From a phage: 64,000 bases of DNA. Position 1 is the stretch's first letter; every line of letters begins with the position of its first letter. A program made the translations under genes and the position numbers. The notes beneath the pieces are model-generated. The model was not told where the DNA came from. It did not search any database and saw nothing but the letters and a program-made list of their open reading frames with translations. Positions 12,465 through 38,446 of the stretch are shown piece after piece. Location: sequence record PZ495249.1; one strand, 5' to 3'.

Positions 12465-12485
12465 AAGGGGCTTCTGCCCCTTTCT
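12465..12485 (+). terminator. GC hairpin, weak terminator/attenuator
   Basis: AAGGGGCTTCTGCCCCTT then T-rich. Confidence 0.4.
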
Positions 12486-14607: not shown

Positions 14608-15579
14608 ATGATGGTAGATATTAGCGCAAAAGTAATTGCACACTCTCACAACGGATGTGGGAATGAAATTGTAACCTTCGAGTTGGAATATCCTCGAATT
14701 ATTCATAGTGAATTGATGACTCACCGTTTATTCAGTCGCAATGCTGCATCGAGTCGAGCTATTCCGGTGAAGACACTGATCGAAATGGTTCGTCAAGAGC
14801 CAGCAATGCCCTATCGCTTTGGTGCAAATCAACCAGGGATGCAAGATAAGGGTGTAGAACACGATGGGATCGTAGGTGCAGGATATACTGGTCGTGAGTG
14901 GTGGAATCTTGCTGCGCTTAGTGCTGCTCGCTTTGCAGAAGAACTGGCAGAGGCTGGTTATCATAAACAAGTTGTTAACCGTCTTCTGGAGCCGTTCCAA
15001 CGCATGAAGACCGTTCTGACTGCCACAGAGTATGAAAACTTCTGGTGGCTGCGTGTAGACGCTGACGCTGATCCAACTATCGAAGCCCTTGCGAAAGCGA
15101 TGCATAAAGAATATGAAGCATCTGAACCAGAACTCCTACAACCTGGTCAATGGCACACGCCATATGTTGATCACATCTATGTGCTTGCAGCAGGTAGTGG
15201 AGATTTAGATCCTCCTGTATTTGATGGTTATTGTGTCTATGATGAAGACAATCATCCGGTACGTTTAACTACCGAAGAGGCGAAATCTATTTCATCCTCG
15301 TGTTGTGCTCAGGTGAGTTATCGCCGTCTTAACTCGACTAAAGATAAAGCCCTTGATATTTATGGACGTTTACTTACAGGGCGTAAGGTACATGCTTCTC
15401 CATTCGAACATCAGGCAACACCAATGCAAGAAACGGATGGATATAAGAATATGGAACCGTATAAGTGTAATTGGGAAGAAGGTGTCACACACATGGATCG
15501 AGATGGTGATCTGTGGTCAGGCAACTTCAAAGGCTTCATTCAACATCGTCAGCTTTTGGACAATCACACCAAGTGGTGA
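14608..15579 (+). CDS. thyX: flavin-dependent thymidylate synthase ThyX-like
   Basis: Track ORF; EIVTFELEYPRIIHSELMTHRLFSRNAASSRAIP matches ThyX region (first Arg of RHR is Thr); long C-terminal extension. Confidence 0.6.
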   Translation: MMVDISAKVIAHSHNGCGNEIVTFELEYPRIIHSELMTHRLFSRNAASSRAIPVKTLIEMVRQEPAMPYRFGANQPGMQDKGVEHDGIVGAGYTGREWWNLAALSAARFAEELAEAGYHKQVVNRLLEPFQRMKTVLTATEYENFWWLRVDADADPTIEALAKAMHKEYEASEPELLQPGQWHTPYVDHIYVLAAGSGDLDPPVFDGYCVYDEDNHPVRLTTEEAKSISSSCCAQVSYRRLNSTKDKALDIYGRLLTGRKVHASPFEHQATPMQETDGYKNMEPYKCNWEEGVTHMDRDGDLWSGNFKGFIQHRQLLDNHTKW

Positions 15580-15596
15580 TTTAGTTCAAAATCCTA

Positions 15597-15625
15597 TTGA
15601 CTTTTAGTTGAGATTCATGTAAGAT
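15597..15625 (+). promoter_or_regulatory. sigma70-like promoter
   Basis: TTGACT-17nt-TAAGAT; 5' UTR hairpin GGGAGAGCTATGTCTCTCCC follows. Confidence 0.5.
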
Positions 15626-15677
15626 AGCATAACGTTGGGAGAGCTATGTCTCTCCCTTGAGAAGAGAAGGAGAATTT

Positions 15678-16088
15678 ATGTCATTAATCAATACAACCGT
15701 TTGGGCGACCGTAAGCATGTCTACCATTGAAGCAACCCCTATCTGGCAAGAAAAATTAGCACAACACAACGGCTATATCCCTAAACAAGAGTACGGTACT
15801 GTTCTTAAACAAGCACTCGTAACATTAGGCATGGCTAACGATGGTTCATACACCGTCGAACGAAACGTCAATATTCGAAGTAATAATGACCTTCGTACTG
15901 TATATGCAAATACCACCTTGTACACTTTCCCTGTACGATCTAATTATCCATACAAACGTGTATATCAGAATCGTGATATTCTACATTTCGGAGAAGAAGG
16001 TTTTACTGGTTGGGGCGTATCTCACATCAAAATGGAAGACTTCGGAAATGAACATGATCCATCAAGAGAAGATGGTTCAGATTTCTAA
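15678..16088 (+). CDS. hypothetical protein
   Basis: Track ORF 15657..16088 trimmed to ATG at 15678 after AAGGAGAA. Confidence 0.5.
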   Translation: MSLINTTVWATVSMSTIEATPIWQEKLAQHNGYIPKQEYGTVLKQALVTLGMANDGSYTVERNVNIRSNNDLRTVYANTTLYTFPVRSNYPYKRVYQNRDILHFGEEGFTGWGVSHIKMEDFGNEHDPSREDGSDF

Positions 16089-16364: not shown

Positions 16365-18614
16365 GTGATTCGATATGTAACTAAATCCAACGGCAAGAAA
16401 GAAGAGTTTAATCCAGAGAAACTTCGTAAATGGTCGGAGTTTGCTGCGGGTAAACTTAACTGGTCGGAAATTGAGTTAGAAGCTGTTAAACGTTGTTACG
16501 ATGGTGTGTCCACTCGTGATCTGCATAAAGCAATGATCTCTGCGTGTATTGACAAGAAAACCCAAGCGTACAGCGATATGGCTGGTCGATTACTTCTCGG
16601 TATGATTTACAAACAGGCGCATGGGGGATACCACAGTATCCCTTCCCTGAATGAGTTCTATAAAGATATGGTGAGCCGAGGCCACTGGATCAAGATGGAC
16701 TATACCGACGAAGAAATCAAAGAGATCGGCAAGATCGTTAAACACGATAAGAACCTTGGGTACGGTTATTCTGTACTTCGTCAAATGTCAGATAAATACC
16801 TGGTGAAAGATGCCGTGAACGATATTGTTCACGAATCTCCTCAGTTCCTGTTTATTGGTGTTGCGATGAAGGTAATGGAGATTCAGCCGAAGGAACGACG
16901 CATTGAAGATATTAAGCGACTGTATACCTATGTCAGTGATCTTAAAATCAACCTGCCGTCACCTTATCTGACGACACTGCGTACTCCGATCCCTGGTAGT
17001 GCTTCCTGCTGTCTGTTCCGCGCAGACGACACAGCAGAATCACTGGCAATTGCAAACTACTTGGCACACGAGTATACTCTGAATAACGCTGGTATTGGTG
17101 TTAACCTCCAGACTCGTGCAACGGGGCAGGGCGTTAAGAACAACCGTATTATCCACGGTGGACTACTTCCTTACCTGAAATGGATGGAAGATAGCGTAGG
17201 TGCATCGAAACAGGCAAGTCGTGGTGGTAGTGCTACCGTCACATACACAATCTTGGAACCAGACTTCGAAGACTTGATCCGAATCAAGAACCCGACAACT
17301 CCGGTTGACAAGCGTGTAGATAAATTAGATTATTCAGTCGTGGTTAACCGTTCCTTCTTACGCCGAGCAGCAAAAGGTGAAGAATGGATGCTGGTAAGCT
17401 GTGATGATGCTCCAGAACTCTACGAAGCACTCTACAAAAGTGAAGAAGAGTTTGATGAGGTTTATGATCGTGTTAGTCGTAAGCGTATCAAGAAAAAATT
17501 CGTTAAGGCGCGTGACCTGCTGACCGAGATTATTGTTCAACGTGCAGAGACAGGACGTATTTATATGTTCTTCGCTGATAACGTAAACAATCACACACCG
17601 TTTACTGATACTGTATATCAGTCAAATCTGTGTCAGGAAATCTTCCTGCCGACGAAAGCATTCCATAAGATGACGGATCTTTTCACTGGGGAAAATACCG
17701 AGGATCAGGAATTAGCTCTGTGCTTCCTATCTTCTATCGTGGCTGGTCGAGTTAAACCAGAAGAATACGAAGATGTAGCCTACTACACCGTATTGACAAT
17801 CGACAACGTTATTGAGACAATGGTTTACCCATTCAAACACAATGAGATCACAGCGAAAGCTCGTCGCTCCATCGGTGTTGGGATTACAAACCTCGCTCAT
17901 TACCTCGCAAGTAACTTCGCGACATACTCTGATCCTTATGGTAAGAAACTGATTCACGAGTTAGCTGAACGCCACTATTTCTGGTTGGCAAGTGCATCTC
18001 TTCGCCTGGCGAAAGAGAAAGGTAATGCTGAGTGGATTGACAAAACCAAATGGCCTCAAGGTTGGCTACCAATTGATACCTATTCAAAAGCGGTAGATGA
18101 TATTGGCAACTTCGAGTTGAAAAACGATTGGGAAGGATTACGCCAAGAGATTATCGCTCAGGGTGGTATCCGCAACAGCGTATTAACCGCTATTGCACCA
18201 AATGAATCAAGTAGCCTGGTGAGTAACACTACCAACTCTGTATATCCAGTACGTGACACAATCATGTACAAGCAGAGCCAGAAAGGTAACGTGTTGTTTA
18301 TTGTGCCGGATTACGAAAAGCTGAAAACCGTTTATCAGAGCGCATGGGATACCCCTGCGAAAGATATTGCTGAAATGTACGGATTGTTAACCAAATTCAT
18401 GGATCAGGGTATTTCCTGTGACGAATGGGCTGACTATTCTAAAATGGAGGGTGGTCGTCTGTCTATTAAAGCTCAGATGCAATTCATCTTCACGTTTGCC
18501 AAATTAGGCGGTAAGTCTCTGTACTACTTGAATAGTAGAACCAAATCAGCCGAATCTCTCGCCCAAGAGGATTCCGGTTTTGGTGAAGATGGTTGCGAAG
18601 CGTGTAAGATGTAA
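16365..18614 (+). CDS. nrdA: ribonucleoside-diphosphate reductase class Ia alpha subunit
   Basis: Track ORF 749 aa, GTG start; ATP-cone N-terminus and conserved RNR large-subunit regions. Confidence 0.9.
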   Translation: MIRYVTKSNGKKEEFNPEKLRKWSEFAAGKLNWSEIELEAVKRCYDGVSTRDLHKAMISACIDKKTQAYSDMAGRLLLGMIYKQAHGGYHSIPSLNEFYKDMVSRGHWIKMDYTDEEIKEIGKIVKHDKNLGYGYSVLRQMSDKYLVKDAVNDIVHESPQFLFIGVAMKVMEIQPKERRIEDIKRLYTYVSDLKINLPSPYLTTLRTPIPGSASCCLFRADDTAESLAIANYLAHEYTLNNAGIGVNLQTRATGQGVKNNRIIHGGLLPYLKWMEDSVGASKQASRGGSATVTYTILEPDFEDLIRIKNPTTPVDKRVDKLDYSVVVNRSFLRRAAKGEEWMLVSCDDAPELYEALYKSEEEFDEVYDRVSRKRIKKKFVKARDLLTEIIVQRAETGRIYMFFADNVNNHTPFTDTVYQSNLCQEIFLPTKAFHKMTDLFTGENTEDQELALCFLSSIVAGRVKPEEYEDVAYYTVLTIDNVIETMVYPFKHNEITAKARRSIGVGITNLAHYLASNFATYSDPYGKKLIHELAERHYFWLASASLRLAKEKGNAEWIDKTKWPQGWLPIDTYSKAVDDIGNFELKNDWEGLRQEIIAQGGIRNSVLTAIAPNESSSLVSNTTNSVYPVRDTIMYKQSQKGNVLFIVPDYEKLKTVYQSAWDTPAKDIAEMYGLLTKFMDQGISCDEWADYSKMEGGRLSIKAQMQFIFTFAKLGGKSLYYLNSRTKSAESLAQEDSGFGEDGCEACKM

Positions 18615-18618
18615 TATC

Positions 18619-18644
18619 AAGGGGCGAAAGCCCCTTTATTTTTC
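18619..18644 (+). terminator. rho-independent terminator
   Basis: AAGGGGCGAAAGCCCCTTTATTTTT. Confidence 0.6.
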
Positions 18645-18655
18645 TAAGGAGGATT

Positions 18656-18994
18656 ATGAATTCTATAATCGTATTGTCTGGAGTAACAAAGCTATTACCA
18701 CTCAAGAATTATGTCCTGGTTGATCCAAAAGATTTCACATTAGATTGGTGTTGTCAGTTTATCGGGGGAATGAATTTTACGAATGCGGAGATCTGGGAGT
18801 CTTCTGACTCTAAGGCAACTGCATATACACTCTCCAGAGTAAGAACTTATGGTTCAGAATTTAGTGTGCTACTGACACAAAGCGTGTGGAATGGTCTGGA
18901 AGAATACTATCGAGAACATGGTGTGGAAGAGAGTGAGATAGAAGTGTTAAAATCATGGTGTGATATTGTGGAGGATTTAAATGGCAGCAATTAA
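18656..18994 (+). CDS. hypothetical protein between nrdA and nrdB
   Basis: Track ORF with AAGGAGGATT RBS. Confidence 0.5.
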   Translation: MNSIIVLSGVTKLLPLKNYVLVDPKDFTLDWCCQFIGGMNFTNAEIWESSDSKATAYTLSRVRTYGSEFSVLLTQSVWNGLEEYYREHGVEESEIEVLKSWCDIVEDLNGSN

Positions 18995-20066
18995 TTTACA
19001 TAACGAAACTTACAAAGAGGGTAAATACCCTGTCTTCTTAGGTGAACAACTGGGGATCTTTGATTCTATTAACGTCACCTATCCTGAAATGCATCGTCTT
19101 TATAAGCTCCAGAAAGCCCAAGATTGGGATGAAAACGAGGTGAATCTGGATCAGACACGTAAAGACTTCGTAGCATGTTCTGCAAATAACTACGATGTGA
19201 TGATCAAAAACCTTTCGTTCCAGTGGGAGAATGATTCCCTGGCGAAATCTATTATCACGTTGTTCGCTCCTTTCCTGAGTAACAATGAAGCCTGTGCAAT
19301 GATGATGAAGCAGTCTGAAATTGAAGTGCTTCACGCTCTAACTTACTCTGAAATTATCCGTCAGTGTATTCCAAATCCGAACGAAGTGATCGAACAGATT
19401 ATGGAAAATGACCGTATCTTCCAGCGAATGGGTATTGTGGAAGAAGTCATGTCCGAACTGTACGAAGCTGGTCACAAGTATGCACTTGGTGAACTGGAAG
19501 CAAATGACGATCTGCGTCTACTGATCCTGAAAGGTATGATCGCTCTGATTGGTCTGGAAGGTATTCAGTTTATCTCTTCCTTCTCTGCAACATTCGCCCT
19601 GGCAGAACAGCAACTGTTCGTCGGTGCATGTAAGCTGATTCAGAAAATTATGTTGGATGAGATCTTGCATGTTAAGATGGATTATGCTATTATTGACGCA
19701 CTGATGAAGGAACCAGAGTGGAAGAAAGTTTACGATGAGAACATTGATGAACTGACTGCTATTCTGGATACCATTATCGCCCAAGAAGAAGATTGGTGCG
19801 ACTACCTGTTCAGTGAAGGTCGTGTAATTGTCGGTCTGAATGCTGAACTGTCCAAACAGTGGGTTTACTTCAACGCCGCCCCTATCTATCGTCGTCTGAA
19901 AATGAAACACAAATTCCGTTCTCCGAAACAAACGCCTCTGGCGTGGATGGATGTGTGGCTCAACCCAGACCAGATTCAAGCGGCTGCTCAGGAAATCCAA
20001 CGTACTGACTACAAACTCAACTCTGCCAATAAAGATGTGGCAGACGATGAAGAATTTGAGTGGTAA
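18981..20066 (+). CDS. nrdB: ribonucleoside-diphosphate reductase beta subunit
   Basis: Track ORF 361 aa; diiron/tyrosyl radical protein signature regions. Confidence 0.9.
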   Translation: MAAINLHNETYKEGKYPVFLGEQLGIFDSINVTYPEMHRLYKLQKAQDWDENEVNLDQTRKDFVACSANNYDVMIKNLSFQWENDSLAKSIITLFAPFLSNNEACAMMMKQSEIEVLHALTYSEIIRQCIPNPNEVIEQIMENDRIFQRMGIVEEVMSELYEAGHKYALGELEANDDLRLLILKGMIALIGLEGIQFISSFSATFALAEQQLFVGACKLIQKIMLDEILHVKMDYAIIDALMKEPEWKKVYDENIDELTAILDTIIAQEEDWCDYLFSEGRVIVGLNAELSKQWVYFNAAPIYRRLKMKHKFRSPKQTPLAWMDVWLNPDQIQAAAQEIQRTDYKLNSANKDVADDEEFEW

Positions 20067-20075
20067 GGAGCAATA

Positions 20076-20213
20076 ATGTTAGATGGTGATGTGTGCCAGG
20101 TTTGTGGTGGCACTGGTCAAGTTTATGTCGGCGGGGGCTTTAGCCCTTGCTGGACTTGTAACGGCTTCGGAGTAATTCCGAAACAAGAGGAGGAAGAAAA
20201 GGATGGGGATTGA
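20076..20213 (+). CDS. small Zn-ribbon-like protein (45 aa)
   Basis: Not in track; CQVCGG...CWTCNG. Confidence 0.35.
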   Translation: MLDGDVCQVCGGTGQVYVGGGFSPCWTCNGFGVIPKQEEEEKDGD

Positions 20214-20529
20214 TATTGGCTGGAGAATGGTACAGGGTGCTACACTGGATGTGTGGGAAGAGGCTTTCGGAGAAGATGAAACATTTCTGGAAGATTATGA
20301 CGGAGACATGGCAGGTTTCTTGGAAGATCACTTGAATGTTGTAAGGGTATCGCCGTGGTTTGATGCAGATAGCTCAGATTGTATCTTCGGTGTTAAACTT
20401 GCAGGTGGTGATTACTCCAAGGATATAGATCTTGCTGAACTTGCTGTTAAGGCAAAAGAAATAGCACACGATCTCAAGAGTAAGTATGGTATTGATACCA
20501 CTACCATTTGTAGTCAGAACGTCTACTAA
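20203..20529 (+). CDS. hypothetical acidic protein
   Basis: Track ORF. Confidence 0.5.
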   Translation: MGIDIGWRMVQGATLDVWEEAFGEDETFLEDYDGDMAGFLEDHLNVVRVSPWFDADSSDCIFGVKLAGGDYSKDIDLAELAVKAKEIAHDLKSKYGIDTTTICSQNVY

Positions 20530-20538
20530 GGAGAAAGA

Positions 20539-21534
20539 ATGCGATACCTGGTGACAGGTGGGCTTGGATTTATTGGGAGCGCGGTAGTGCGCTCTCTGCA
20601 TAAAAACCCACTTAACGAAATCTATGTTGTTGACAAATGGGGCTATGCCTCCGATCCACGTAATCTTACACTCACCCCAGATGTAAGATTCTGTAAGTTA
20701 GACTTGACAGACCTCGTGTTAACTGTTAAGATGCTGGCTGACATTAATCCAGATTACATTATCCACTTGGCGGCTGAAAGCCATGTTGACAATTCAATCT
20801 CTGCTCCAAAAGCATTCATTGAGTCAAATGTAATCGGTACGTTCAATCTGCTTGAAGCAGTGCGGTACATGGGTAACAGATCAAAGCTCAAGAAGTTCCT
20901 ACATGTCTCCACAGACGAAGTGTACGGCGATTTGAGCGTAGAAGATGTTCCGTTTACCGAAGACACACCTTATGCCCCAAGTAGCCCGTACAGCGCGTCT
21001 AAGGCAGCGAGTGACCATCTGGTACAAGCTTGGCATCGTACCTACGGAATTCCAACCGTAATTACCAATTGCTCGAACAACTTTGGTGCATATCAGCATC
21101 CAGAAAAGTTGATTCCCCGTGTAATTACGAGTATCATGATCGGTAAACAGATTCCTGTCTATGGGAACGGTTTACAAGTAAGGGATTGGTTGTTTGTCGA
21201 TGACCATGTAGATGCCTTGCTTCTGGCACTCACCGAAGGTAAGGTGGGAGAAACATATAATATCGGTAGTCGCAACCCTCGTACCAATATGGAAGTAATT
21301 TATATGATCTGTGATTATATGGATGCTGTCCATGCAGACAAGGGTTTCTATCCTGCATCAAATCTTATTAAATTCGTTAGTGATCGCCCTGGTCATGACA
21401 CTCGTTATGAGATTGATCCTACGAAGTTGGAGACAGAGTTAGGATGGGCTACTGAGGGTACATTCGAAGAGAAACTTTATCAAACCATTGAGTGGTATAT
21501 TGCTCACGACTTATGGTGGCAGAATAAAGTTTAA
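20539..21534 (+). CDS. rmlB: dTDP-glucose 4,6-dehydratase
   Basis: Track ORF; [33 protein letters not shown]; close to enterobacterial RmlB. Confidence 0.9.
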
Positions 21535-21542
21535 GGAGGAGC

Positions 21543-22469
21543 ATGAAAGGTATTATCCTTGCGGGTGGCAGTGGCACTCGTTTGTATCCGGTGACTAAAG
21601 GGGTAAGCAAGCAATTGCTCCCCATTTACGATAAACCGATGATCTACTATCCACTATCTGTATTAATGCTGGCAGGGATAAACGATATCTTAATTATCAC
21701 AACACCCGAAGATCAGCGTAATTTCCAACAGCTTCTTGATGACGGAGAAGACTTAGGAATCAGCATCACCTATGCAACTCAGGATCAACCAAGAGGGTTG
21801 GCAGAAGCCTTTATTATCGGTGAAGATTTCATTGGTGATGATTCTGTAGCCCTTGTCCTCGGAGATAATTTATTCTTTGGACAAAGTTTCGGTACTCTCT
21901 TACATTGTGCAAAAGAGCATGTGGAATTCTATGGCGGAGCCGGAGTATTTGGTTATCGAGTGAACGATCCTGAACGATTCGGTGTTGTAGAGTTCGATGA
22001 CTCAGGTAAGGTTGTGAGTATTGAAGAGAAACCTGTTAATCCTCGCAGCAATTATGCAGTTACTGGACTTTATTTCTACGACAATTCTGTGATTCAGAAA
22101 GCCAAAGAAGTGCAACCTTCTGCTCGTGGTGAATTGGAGATTACAGACATTAACGAAATGTACCTTAAAGAACGTGCGCTCCAAGTGTGGAAACTGGGAA
22201 GAGGTTTCACTTGGCTTGACACAGGTACACATGCAAGTTTAATGGAGGCATCTCAGTTTGTGCATACAATTGAGAAACAGCAAGGAATGAAACTCGCTTG
22301 CCTTGAAGAAATTGCATTTATGAATGGGTGGATTACAGCAGAGCAACTTATTCTGACAGGAACTGCCCTGGCTAAAACAGAATATGGACAATATCTGCTT
22401 TCATTAGGAGGGGTTAGATGGAAAGCACAATTAACGTCAGAGAAACCAGCATTGAAGGTCTTGTCGTAA
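21543..22469 (+). CDS. rmlA: glucose-1-phosphate thymidylyltransferase
   Basis: Track ORF; [16 protein letters not shown]...[17 protein letters not shown]. Confidence 0.9.
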
Positions 22470-24745: not shown

Positions 24746-24765
24746 AGGGGCGTAAGCCCCTTATT
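24746..24765 (+). terminator. GC hairpin, weak terminator
   Basis: AGGGGCGTAAGCCCCT; identical core at 38425. Confidence 0.45.
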
Positions 24766-38424: not shown

Positions 38425-38446
38425 AAGGGGCGTAAGCCCCTTTCTT
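38425..38446 (+). terminator. GC hairpin, weak terminator
   Basis: AAGGGGCGTAAGCCCCTTTCTT. Confidence 0.45.

Follow-up and report, generated by a model that had tools for sequence, protein, structure and literature searches.

A probable accessory gene cassette between nrdA and nrdB of a Klebsiella-type phage, set behind an apparently older hairpin

Large lytic T4-type phages contain hyperplastic regions, in which small ORFan cassettes are shuffled by recombination at repeated regulatory motifs. In T4 the spacer between nrdA and nrdB is occupied by mobE, a free-standing HNH endonuclease gene (PMC2790892; PMC3653736), and among the T-even phages this spacer holds a terminator only where mobE is present, a promoter inside mobE restoring nrdB transcription (PMC2790892). 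Here we analyze the corresponding spacer in a 64,000-nucleotide (nt) stretch of phage DNA, sequence record PZ495249.1 (hereafter the window), where an open reading frame (ORF) of 112 amino acids (aa) separates nrdA and nrdB, the genes for the large subunit and the small subunit of class I ribonucleotide reductase (RNR). The layout reported in the original prediction, namely nrdA, a terminator-like hairpin, the 112-aa ORF and an overlap with the start of nrdB, was confirmed: the ORF occupies 18656-18994 on the plus strand, with its ATG at 18656 and its TAA stop at 18992-18994, and its 3' end shares 14 nt with nrdB, whose ATG lies at 18981. The ORF is a real gene, and we consider it fairly probable that it is a dispensable, fast-evolving accessory one, carried as a recombining cassette and co-expressed with nrdB, and probably not a subunit, a maturation factor or a dedicated regulator of RNR.

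As in T4, nrdA and nrdB are separated by a gene that has no relation to RNR, that is embedded in the expression of the operon and that some relatives have and others do not; sister phages of the window's subfamily, moreover, have an HNH endonuclease gene in this spacer. The locus differs from that of T4 in that the ORF is not a nuclease and, with respect to the T-even phages, in that the hairpin is present here with or without an insertion and that a 10-kb scan (phage-specific promoters lying outside its coverage) shows no sigma-70-like promoter within the ORF. Concerning the traits of free-standing homing endonucleases, presence/absence polymorphism was found, which does not define that family by itself, and a nuclease motif or family was not. 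With the cassettes of hyperplastic regions the ORF shares its bounding by repeated expression signals (hairpin and Shine-Dalgarno (SD) sequence on the left, SD on the right), the presence/absence polymorphism and the replacement of alleles between near-identical genomes; unlike them, it lies inside an essential two-gene operon instead of a dispensable early-gene block, and keeps to one site in all members of the family. It does not have the build of a moron, since the same scan, limited as above, yields no sigma-70-like plus-strand promoter for the ORF and no terminator follows it.

Comparison with relatives marks the 112-aa ORF as a genuine protein-coding gene, not a chance reading frame. Its product matches PHROG 17458 over the full length (E=1.6e-40, residues 1-112 on profile positions 1-112), and tblastn recovers it from 80 phage records, once per record and, in those of the listed records that are annotated, next to nrdB. 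Queries with two different alleles each recover 80 records, with the same organism and host breakdown and a single place per record. A word-indexed, alignment-seeded search of 5.8 billion proteins gave 30 clusters of homologues at 35-91% identity, and when 1.84 billion cluster representatives were searched exhaustively with a profile, only 11 matched at E<=0.001; the credible profile matches are all 103-119 aa long, bar one 40-aa fragment. The most distant members, P0029 (35% identity) and P0031 (~30%), are also located between nrdA and nrdB on their contigs. PHROG 17458 is thus a narrow, phage-only family of Stephanstirmvirinae and close metagenomic relatives. Every ORF allele is intact, and the ratio of nonsynonymous to synonymous substitution rates (dN/dS, Nei-Gojobori) is 0.14-0.29 in close allele pairs versus ~0.02 for nrdA and nrdB, which points to purifying selection roughly ten times more relaxed than that on the two RNR genes. 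In dozens of records the ORF is already annotated as 'hypothetical protein', and literature searches on the ORF or on Stephanstirmvirinae transcriptomes returned genome descriptions only.

The AlphaFold2 model, built from a 30-sequence alignment, shows a confident single domain (predicted local distance difference test score 91, predicted template-modelling score 0.85) with the topology strand-strand-helix-strand-helix-strand-helix-helix-strand, i.e. a compact alpha/beta sandwich. The predicted isoelectric point is 4.4, and lies at 4.4-5.1 in 24 of the 30 members. In the family alignment F27, W31, W47 and A54 are invariant and D23, D26, T28, C32, G38, S49, R61, S76-W78 and E82 nearly so; among the cysteines only C32 is nearly conserved, C33 varying to H, Y or L. 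The conserved residues map in or beside the strand-to-helix turns after model strands 2, 3 and 4, the edge at which alpha/beta sandwiches usually bind, an assignment that names no ligand.

The homology and structure searches proposed for the ORF have been run and leave it, as first described, a gene of no assigned function: it belongs to PHROG 17458 only, with no known family or solved fold. Pfam finds no domain in the product, even at E<=10, and Foldseek of the model against the PDB gives no match; against BFVD it recovers the ORF's own family plus weak matches to hypothetical proteins from Escherichia phage 4MG and from phage Hena1. With Pfam (relaxed), NCBIfam and PADLOC, the 30 members gave only scattered, chance-level matches, none of them consistent, such as UPF0149 (three members, under the cut-off), PtuB (one) and Skp1 (two). 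The likely 4MG counterpart, gp158 (PHROG 25840; hhalign E=0.0019, probability 14%; hmmsearch E=0.045), sits among small early genes, away from nrd, and is possibly a remote relative of the ORF family. It should be noted that a 109-aa coding sequence among the small early genes of 4MG (15465-15794 of the examined locus) is annotated 'ribonucleotide reductase NrdA-like', and that no full nrdA or nrdB turned up in the 100 kb of 4MG looked at.

To place the ORF among its relatives, the junction between nrdA and nrdB of Escherichia phage tuntematon, which has no ORF, was used as a megablast query, and 60 records were listed. About 36 of the 60 match it in one uninterrupted piece, i.e. have an empty junction, and belong, as tuntematon does, to the sister genus Phapecoctavirus. 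The ORF state is seen in ten of the 60, which match in two pieces ~321 nt further apart (~490 nt in the two ZCKP1 records); six more match on the nrdB side only and have an ORF annotation. Eight carry an insert of ~670 nt, the HNH state, exemplified by phage nieznany, whose insert encodes a 218-aa protein matching PHROG 953 at 2e-56 and PHROG 374 at 7.5e-41, both annotated as HNH endonuclease. The idea of a gene inserted into a simpler arrangement is therefore upheld, as nrdA and nrdB are 39-44 nt apart in the rV5-like outgroup PDX and in the empty-junction Phapecoctavirus records. Nor is the ORF an ordinary hypothetical gene conserved in all relatives, as it occurs in some of them only: NrdB homologues of at least 60% identity are found in 134 phage records versus 80 for the ORF, and tblastn with two different alleles finds no copy elsewhere in the empty-junction phages. 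Four states coexist within the genus Phapecoctavirus: two ORF alleles with 49% identity, those of phAPEC8 and ESCO13, the empty junction and the HNH gene. No locus among those examined was found to hold both the ORF and the HNH gene, and the sides of insertion differ, the HNH gene lying 5' and the ORF 3' of the hairpin. With T4 mobE as a parallel, the spacer between nrdA and nrdB is an insertion hot spot, in which foreign genes settle recurrently.

Two further observations concern the nrdA side of this junction. In nieznany (2660-2715 of the examined locus) the final nrdA codons read …GAAGACGAAGGGTGTAGTGCCTGTAAAATGTAG, versus …GATGGTGGTTGTGAAGCTTGCAAGATGTGA in the empty and ORF-bearing phages, a difference with the pattern expected of a co-conversion tract or of a target-site change accompanying homing. 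In the ORF-bearing Klebsiella phage ZCKP1 the junction is 936 nt long and that of phAPEC8 765 nt, and the ZCKP1 match covers only 85% of the query, which points to an additional rearrangement at the nrdA 3' end or an additional insertion there.

The alleles of the ORF differ widely between otherwise near-identical genomes, as comparison of the window with three Klebsiella phages illustrates. KP2025 and KP13-26 share 99.5% aa identity in NrdA and 99.4% in NrdB versus 47.7% in the ORF; for KP2025 and phi1_175008 the values are 99.2%, 99.2% and 53.3%, for phi1_175008 and KP13-26 99.2%, 99.2% and 63.6%, and for the window and phi1_175008 98.3%, 97.5% and 55.1%. The KP13-26 allele shares 62% identity with the allele of the E. 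coli phage Paula, more than with the alleles of two of its three close relatives compared, KP2025 (47.7%) and the window (49.5%). The boundaries show in a metagenomic IMG/VR locus (L020), whose nucleotide identity to the window is 97-100% over 1.2 kb on either side, in nrdA and in nrdB, and drops to 44-65% from ~18655, at the ORF ATG, to ~18945, just 5' of the nrdB ribosome-binding region. Synonymous divergence (dS) between such alleles is saturated, with a flank dS of only 0.1-0.3, hence the alleles greatly predate the genomes in which they are found. We infer that homologous recombination within the conserved flanks passes them from genome to genome, and the ORF is best described as a hypervariable, swappable allelic cassette.

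A reading of the hairpin that precedes the ORF as part of the insertion is not supported by the comparison. The hairpin consists of AAGGGGC-GAAA-GCCCCTT at 18619-18636, 4 nt after the nrdA stop, followed by TATTTTTCT with TATTTTT directly after the stem; together with this T-run it occupies 18619-18645 on the plus strand and, by terminator scan, fold and comparison with relatives, resembles an intrinsic terminator. Ranked first of the terminator-like sites by the 10-kb scan (7 pairs, 5 of them G-C), it has a centroid fold energy of about -12.7 kcal/mol, and has the structure of a Rho-independent terminator, i.e. a 7-bp G+C-rich stem with a GAAA loop and then TTTATTTTT; Rfam gave no match above threshold around it. 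The GGGGC/GCCCC stem is unchanged across seven ORF-bearing relatives, the loop differing (GAAA, TTCA and TTTG-type). The same hairpin is present in the ORF-less tuntematon (44-nt spacer) and in the outgroup PDX (39-nt spacer), and in nieznany it stands 3' of the HNH gene, immediately 5' of nrdB. Being shared by empty-junction phages and found after the HNH gene, the hairpin is independent of the ORF insertion and appears to be an older feature of the operon.

Concerning its effect on transcription, nrdB, or the ORF followed by nrdB, opens 10-20 nt past the T-run in all three junction states, and only ~10 nt separate the T-run from the SD of the ORF, too short for a sigma-70-like promoter; within its coverage, the 10-kb scan found no such promoter on the plus strand, neither in the gap from hairpin to ATG nor within the ORF. 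With neither room for a promoter nor one found, nrdB transcripts would have to read through the hairpin, which would then be at most a partial terminator or an mRNA-stabilizing element. GGGGC-N4-GCCCC occurs five times on the plus strand of the window, versus 0.37 expected by chance. Besides the copy in the nrd spacer (18621-18634), such hairpins lie at 12467-12480, 24747-24760 and 38427-38440, and these three, the exact ones outside that spacer, share the order stop, hairpin, SD and ATG, with SD and ATG within about 10-20 nt. The motif looks like routine intercistronic punctuation in the long plus-strand gene arrays of this phage.

At its right end the ORF is read in two ways. The segment IVEDL near its C-terminus is near-invariant in the alignments because the codons concerned also encode the SD and start region of nrdB: GTG GAG GAT TTA (V-E-D-L) hold the nrdB SD, GGAGGA, and for its last four residues, NGSN, the ORF uses the nrdB start region in a different reading frame. 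IVEDL was hence rejected as a functional protein motif. The nrdB SD overlaps the right copy of an 8-nt direct repeat, GGAGGATT (18970-18977, plus strand, defined from the sequence, the alignments and the right junctions of 15 alleles), whose left copy, at 18648-18655, lies in the region of the ORF's own, strong SD (18646-18655, plus strand, with AAGGAGG at 18646-18652). The two copies, starting at 18648 and 18970, bracket the ORF body, and only four occur in the 64 kb. Empty junctions read as the left junction of the window fused to its right junction at GGAGGATT, and a deletion between the two ribosome-binding-site repeats is hence a plausible route to the empty state.

Taken as an accessory cassette, the ORF would have entered the spacer at the base of a Stephanstirmvirinae-like lineage, because outgroups do not have it and deep relatives do. 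Afterwards its alleles may have been swapped between co-infecting relatives through homologous recombination in the conserved flanks, and in part of Phapecoctavirus the gene may have been lost, plausibly through a deletion between the GGAGGATT repeats or because an empty or HNH allele took its place. The ORF and nrdB would be transcribed by read-through of a leaky hairpin, acting as an attenuator or as a stabilizer of mRNA ends, and translated together. Judging from the comparisons, RNR does not seem to need the ORF, as phages with nearly identical RNR dispense with it, and the ORF does not appear to co-vary with NrdA or NrdB. Given null alleles, deep allelic lineages and this lack of co-variation, an accessory protein with a variable partner would fit better than a subunit-like or maturation role. 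Most likely the product is a small, mostly acidic, soluble alpha/beta accessory factor binding a component of the host or of a competing phage, for which a role in counter-defence or host takeover would fit.

Several observations weigh against an accessory cassette of this kind. The ORF is found solely between nrdA and nrdB, across divergence to about 25-35% identity, and inside a nucleotide-metabolism module, and its overall dN/dS is below 1, with no direct signal of positive selection. The positional fidelity is a prediction of an RNR-linked function, but might also just come from recombination being confined to the conserved flanks.

The chief competing explanation, which we regard as possible though rather unlikely, is precisely such a function: the product would bind the phage NrdB or NrdA, be made in step with NrdB by translational coupling and tune the activity, the cofactor assembly or the entry of RNR into a complex for deoxyribonucleoside triphosphate synthesis, being helpful and not essential. 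The strict linkage to nrdA and nrdB in every member, the most divergent included, argues for it, as do the overlap with the nrdB start, the nrdB SD embedded in the ORF, the location in the nucleotide-metabolism module and, in the model, the position of the conserved residues listed above (D23, D26, F27, T28, W31, C32, W47, S49, A54, R61, S76-W78 and E82) at turns where alpha/beta proteins usually bind ligands or partners. It is opposed by the about 36 records whose nrdAB flanks are 95-99% identical and which have no copy at the junction or elsewhere, by alleles only 48-64% identical beside 99% identical NrdA and NrdB, i.e. no co-variation with RNR, and by the location of the possible remote relative, 4MG gp158, away from nrd genes. 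The same facts weaken the earlier suggestion of an RNR regulator, of which the positional link stands and nothing more: phages with those near-identical flanks lack the gene, and alleles ~50% different sit beside 99% identical NrdA and NrdB.

Like the NrdI flavodoxin, the NrdH redoxin and the YfaE 2Fe-2S ferredoxin, the ORF product is a small protein encoded in or beside an RNR operon; unlike them, it has no Pfam or NCBIfam match (Flavodoxin_NdrI, glutaredoxin, 2Fe-2S ferredoxin) and no redox-active Cys motif, neither CxxC nor a four-Cys cluster, with a single near-conserved Cys, and it is dispensable in near-identical phages. The NrdB translation of the window shows ExxH motifs and a Tyr four residues past the first His, a pattern that we take to resemble class Ia enzymes by the numbering of E. 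coli NrdB. Class Ia RNR enzymes work without NrdI.

A second alternative seems to us unlikely: the ORF would encode a rapidly diversifying effector tied to nucleotide supply, e.g. an inhibitor of a host defence that depletes nucleotides or senses RNR, or a protein that modulates the RNR of host or phage in an allele-specific manner, kept by nrdB for joint production, with ancient alleles, null alleles and the HNH competitor under frequency-dependent selection.

It is improbable, in our view, that the ORF is a selfish or homing-related cassette, persisting through linkage to a recombination or homing hot spot with no benefit to the phage, as cargo or relic of a free-standing homing element or by altering susceptibility to the HNH endonuclease of sister phages. 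The HNH gene in the same spacer of eight sister-phage records, its absence alongside the ORF in the loci examined, the presence of the ORF varying among relatives with sharp recombination boundaries, and the T4 precedent of the free-standing endonuclease gene mobE in this very spacer (PMC2790892; PMC3653736) would all fit. The protein itself fits poorly: it has no nuclease motif and no Pfam match, its predicted alpha/beta sandwich is not a beta-beta-alpha-metal nuclease, and intact alleles with a dN/dS of 0.14-0.29 indicate that the protein sequence itself is under selection. The insertion points also differ, ORF and HNH gene lying on opposite sides of the hairpin. A degraded endonuclease was rejected, as hhalign gives a probability of 0.2% against the HNH protein of nieznany from the same spacer; with this lack of likeness, the intact alleles and the purifying selection, the suggestion of a mobile-element remnant is not sustained.

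Finally, a ribbon-helix-helix (CopG-like) transcriptional regulator of the nrd operon, suggested by a weak PDB profile match (residues 66-96, E=0.6) and a local strand followed by two helices, is very improbable and was rejected, as the segment lies within a larger single domain in the AlphaFold topology, the isoelectric point is an acidic 4.4 and no ribbon-helix-helix fold is matched.

As for the surroundings, the window is DNA of a Klebsiella-type myophage of Stephanstirmvirinae, "Sichuanvirus"-like; a genus "Sichuanvirus" within this subfamily has been proposed for Klebsiella phages such as KP2025 and FKP3 (PMC11726925). Its nrdA-nrdB segment is ~90% identical at the nucleotide level to KP2025 and FKP3, and 76-81% to the E. 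coli phages of Phapecoctavirus and Justusliebigvirus. On the plus strand, nrdA (16365-18614; ORF list and Pfam) encodes 749 aa from a GTG start to a TAA stop, matching Ribonuc_red_lgC (1.8e-97), Ribonuc_red_lgN (1e-11) and, weakly, ATP-cone, and its product is 98-99% identical to NrdA of KP2025, phi1_175008 and KP13-26; nrdB (18981-20066) encodes 361 aa from an ATG, with Pfam Ribonuc_red_sm at 2.4e-33. The two belong to a nucleotide-metabolism module of thyX, nrdAB and, downstream in relatives, a glutaredoxin. An annotated HNH endonuclease gene of KP2025 (78-650 of the examined locus), two genes 5' of the thyX-like thymidylate synthase and ~2.4 kb 5' of nrdA, is a further endonuclease gene in the same module.

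Just past nrdB (~20050-20530) the nucleotide identity of the window to KP2025, KP13-26 and phi1_175008 falls from ~90% to 17-55%. Those three phages continue into rfbC and rmlD, whereas ORFs at 20539-22469 of the window are positioned like a dTDP-glucose 4,6-dehydratase and a glucose-1-phosphate thymidylyltransferase, as in phAPEC8 and Tr1, identities taken from the annotations of relatives. This is a second mosaic breakpoint beside the RNR operon. A 45-aa ORF (20076-20213), which opens 10 nt past the nrdB stop, has two CxxC pairs (zinc-ribbon-like) and a weak match to phrog_8027 (4.5e-05); the next, of 108 aa, belongs to PHROG 15453, a family of no assigned function.

The ORF cassette is a new example of ordinary phage mosaicism, of an already known accessory-cassette kind. 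If the reading given here is true, its place inside the RNR operon does not make the ORF an RNR component, which calls for caution in annotation, and the 'terminator' is punctuation that the operon already had, not a mark left by the insertion. The locus also offers a natural experiment: at one and the same site, near-identical phages have one of at least four deep alleles, a null allele or an HNH endonuclease, so that the gene would be easy to probe for a host-specific phenotype such as counter-defence, and it would provide a second system, beside T4 mobE, for how insertions between nrdA and nrdB are tolerated.
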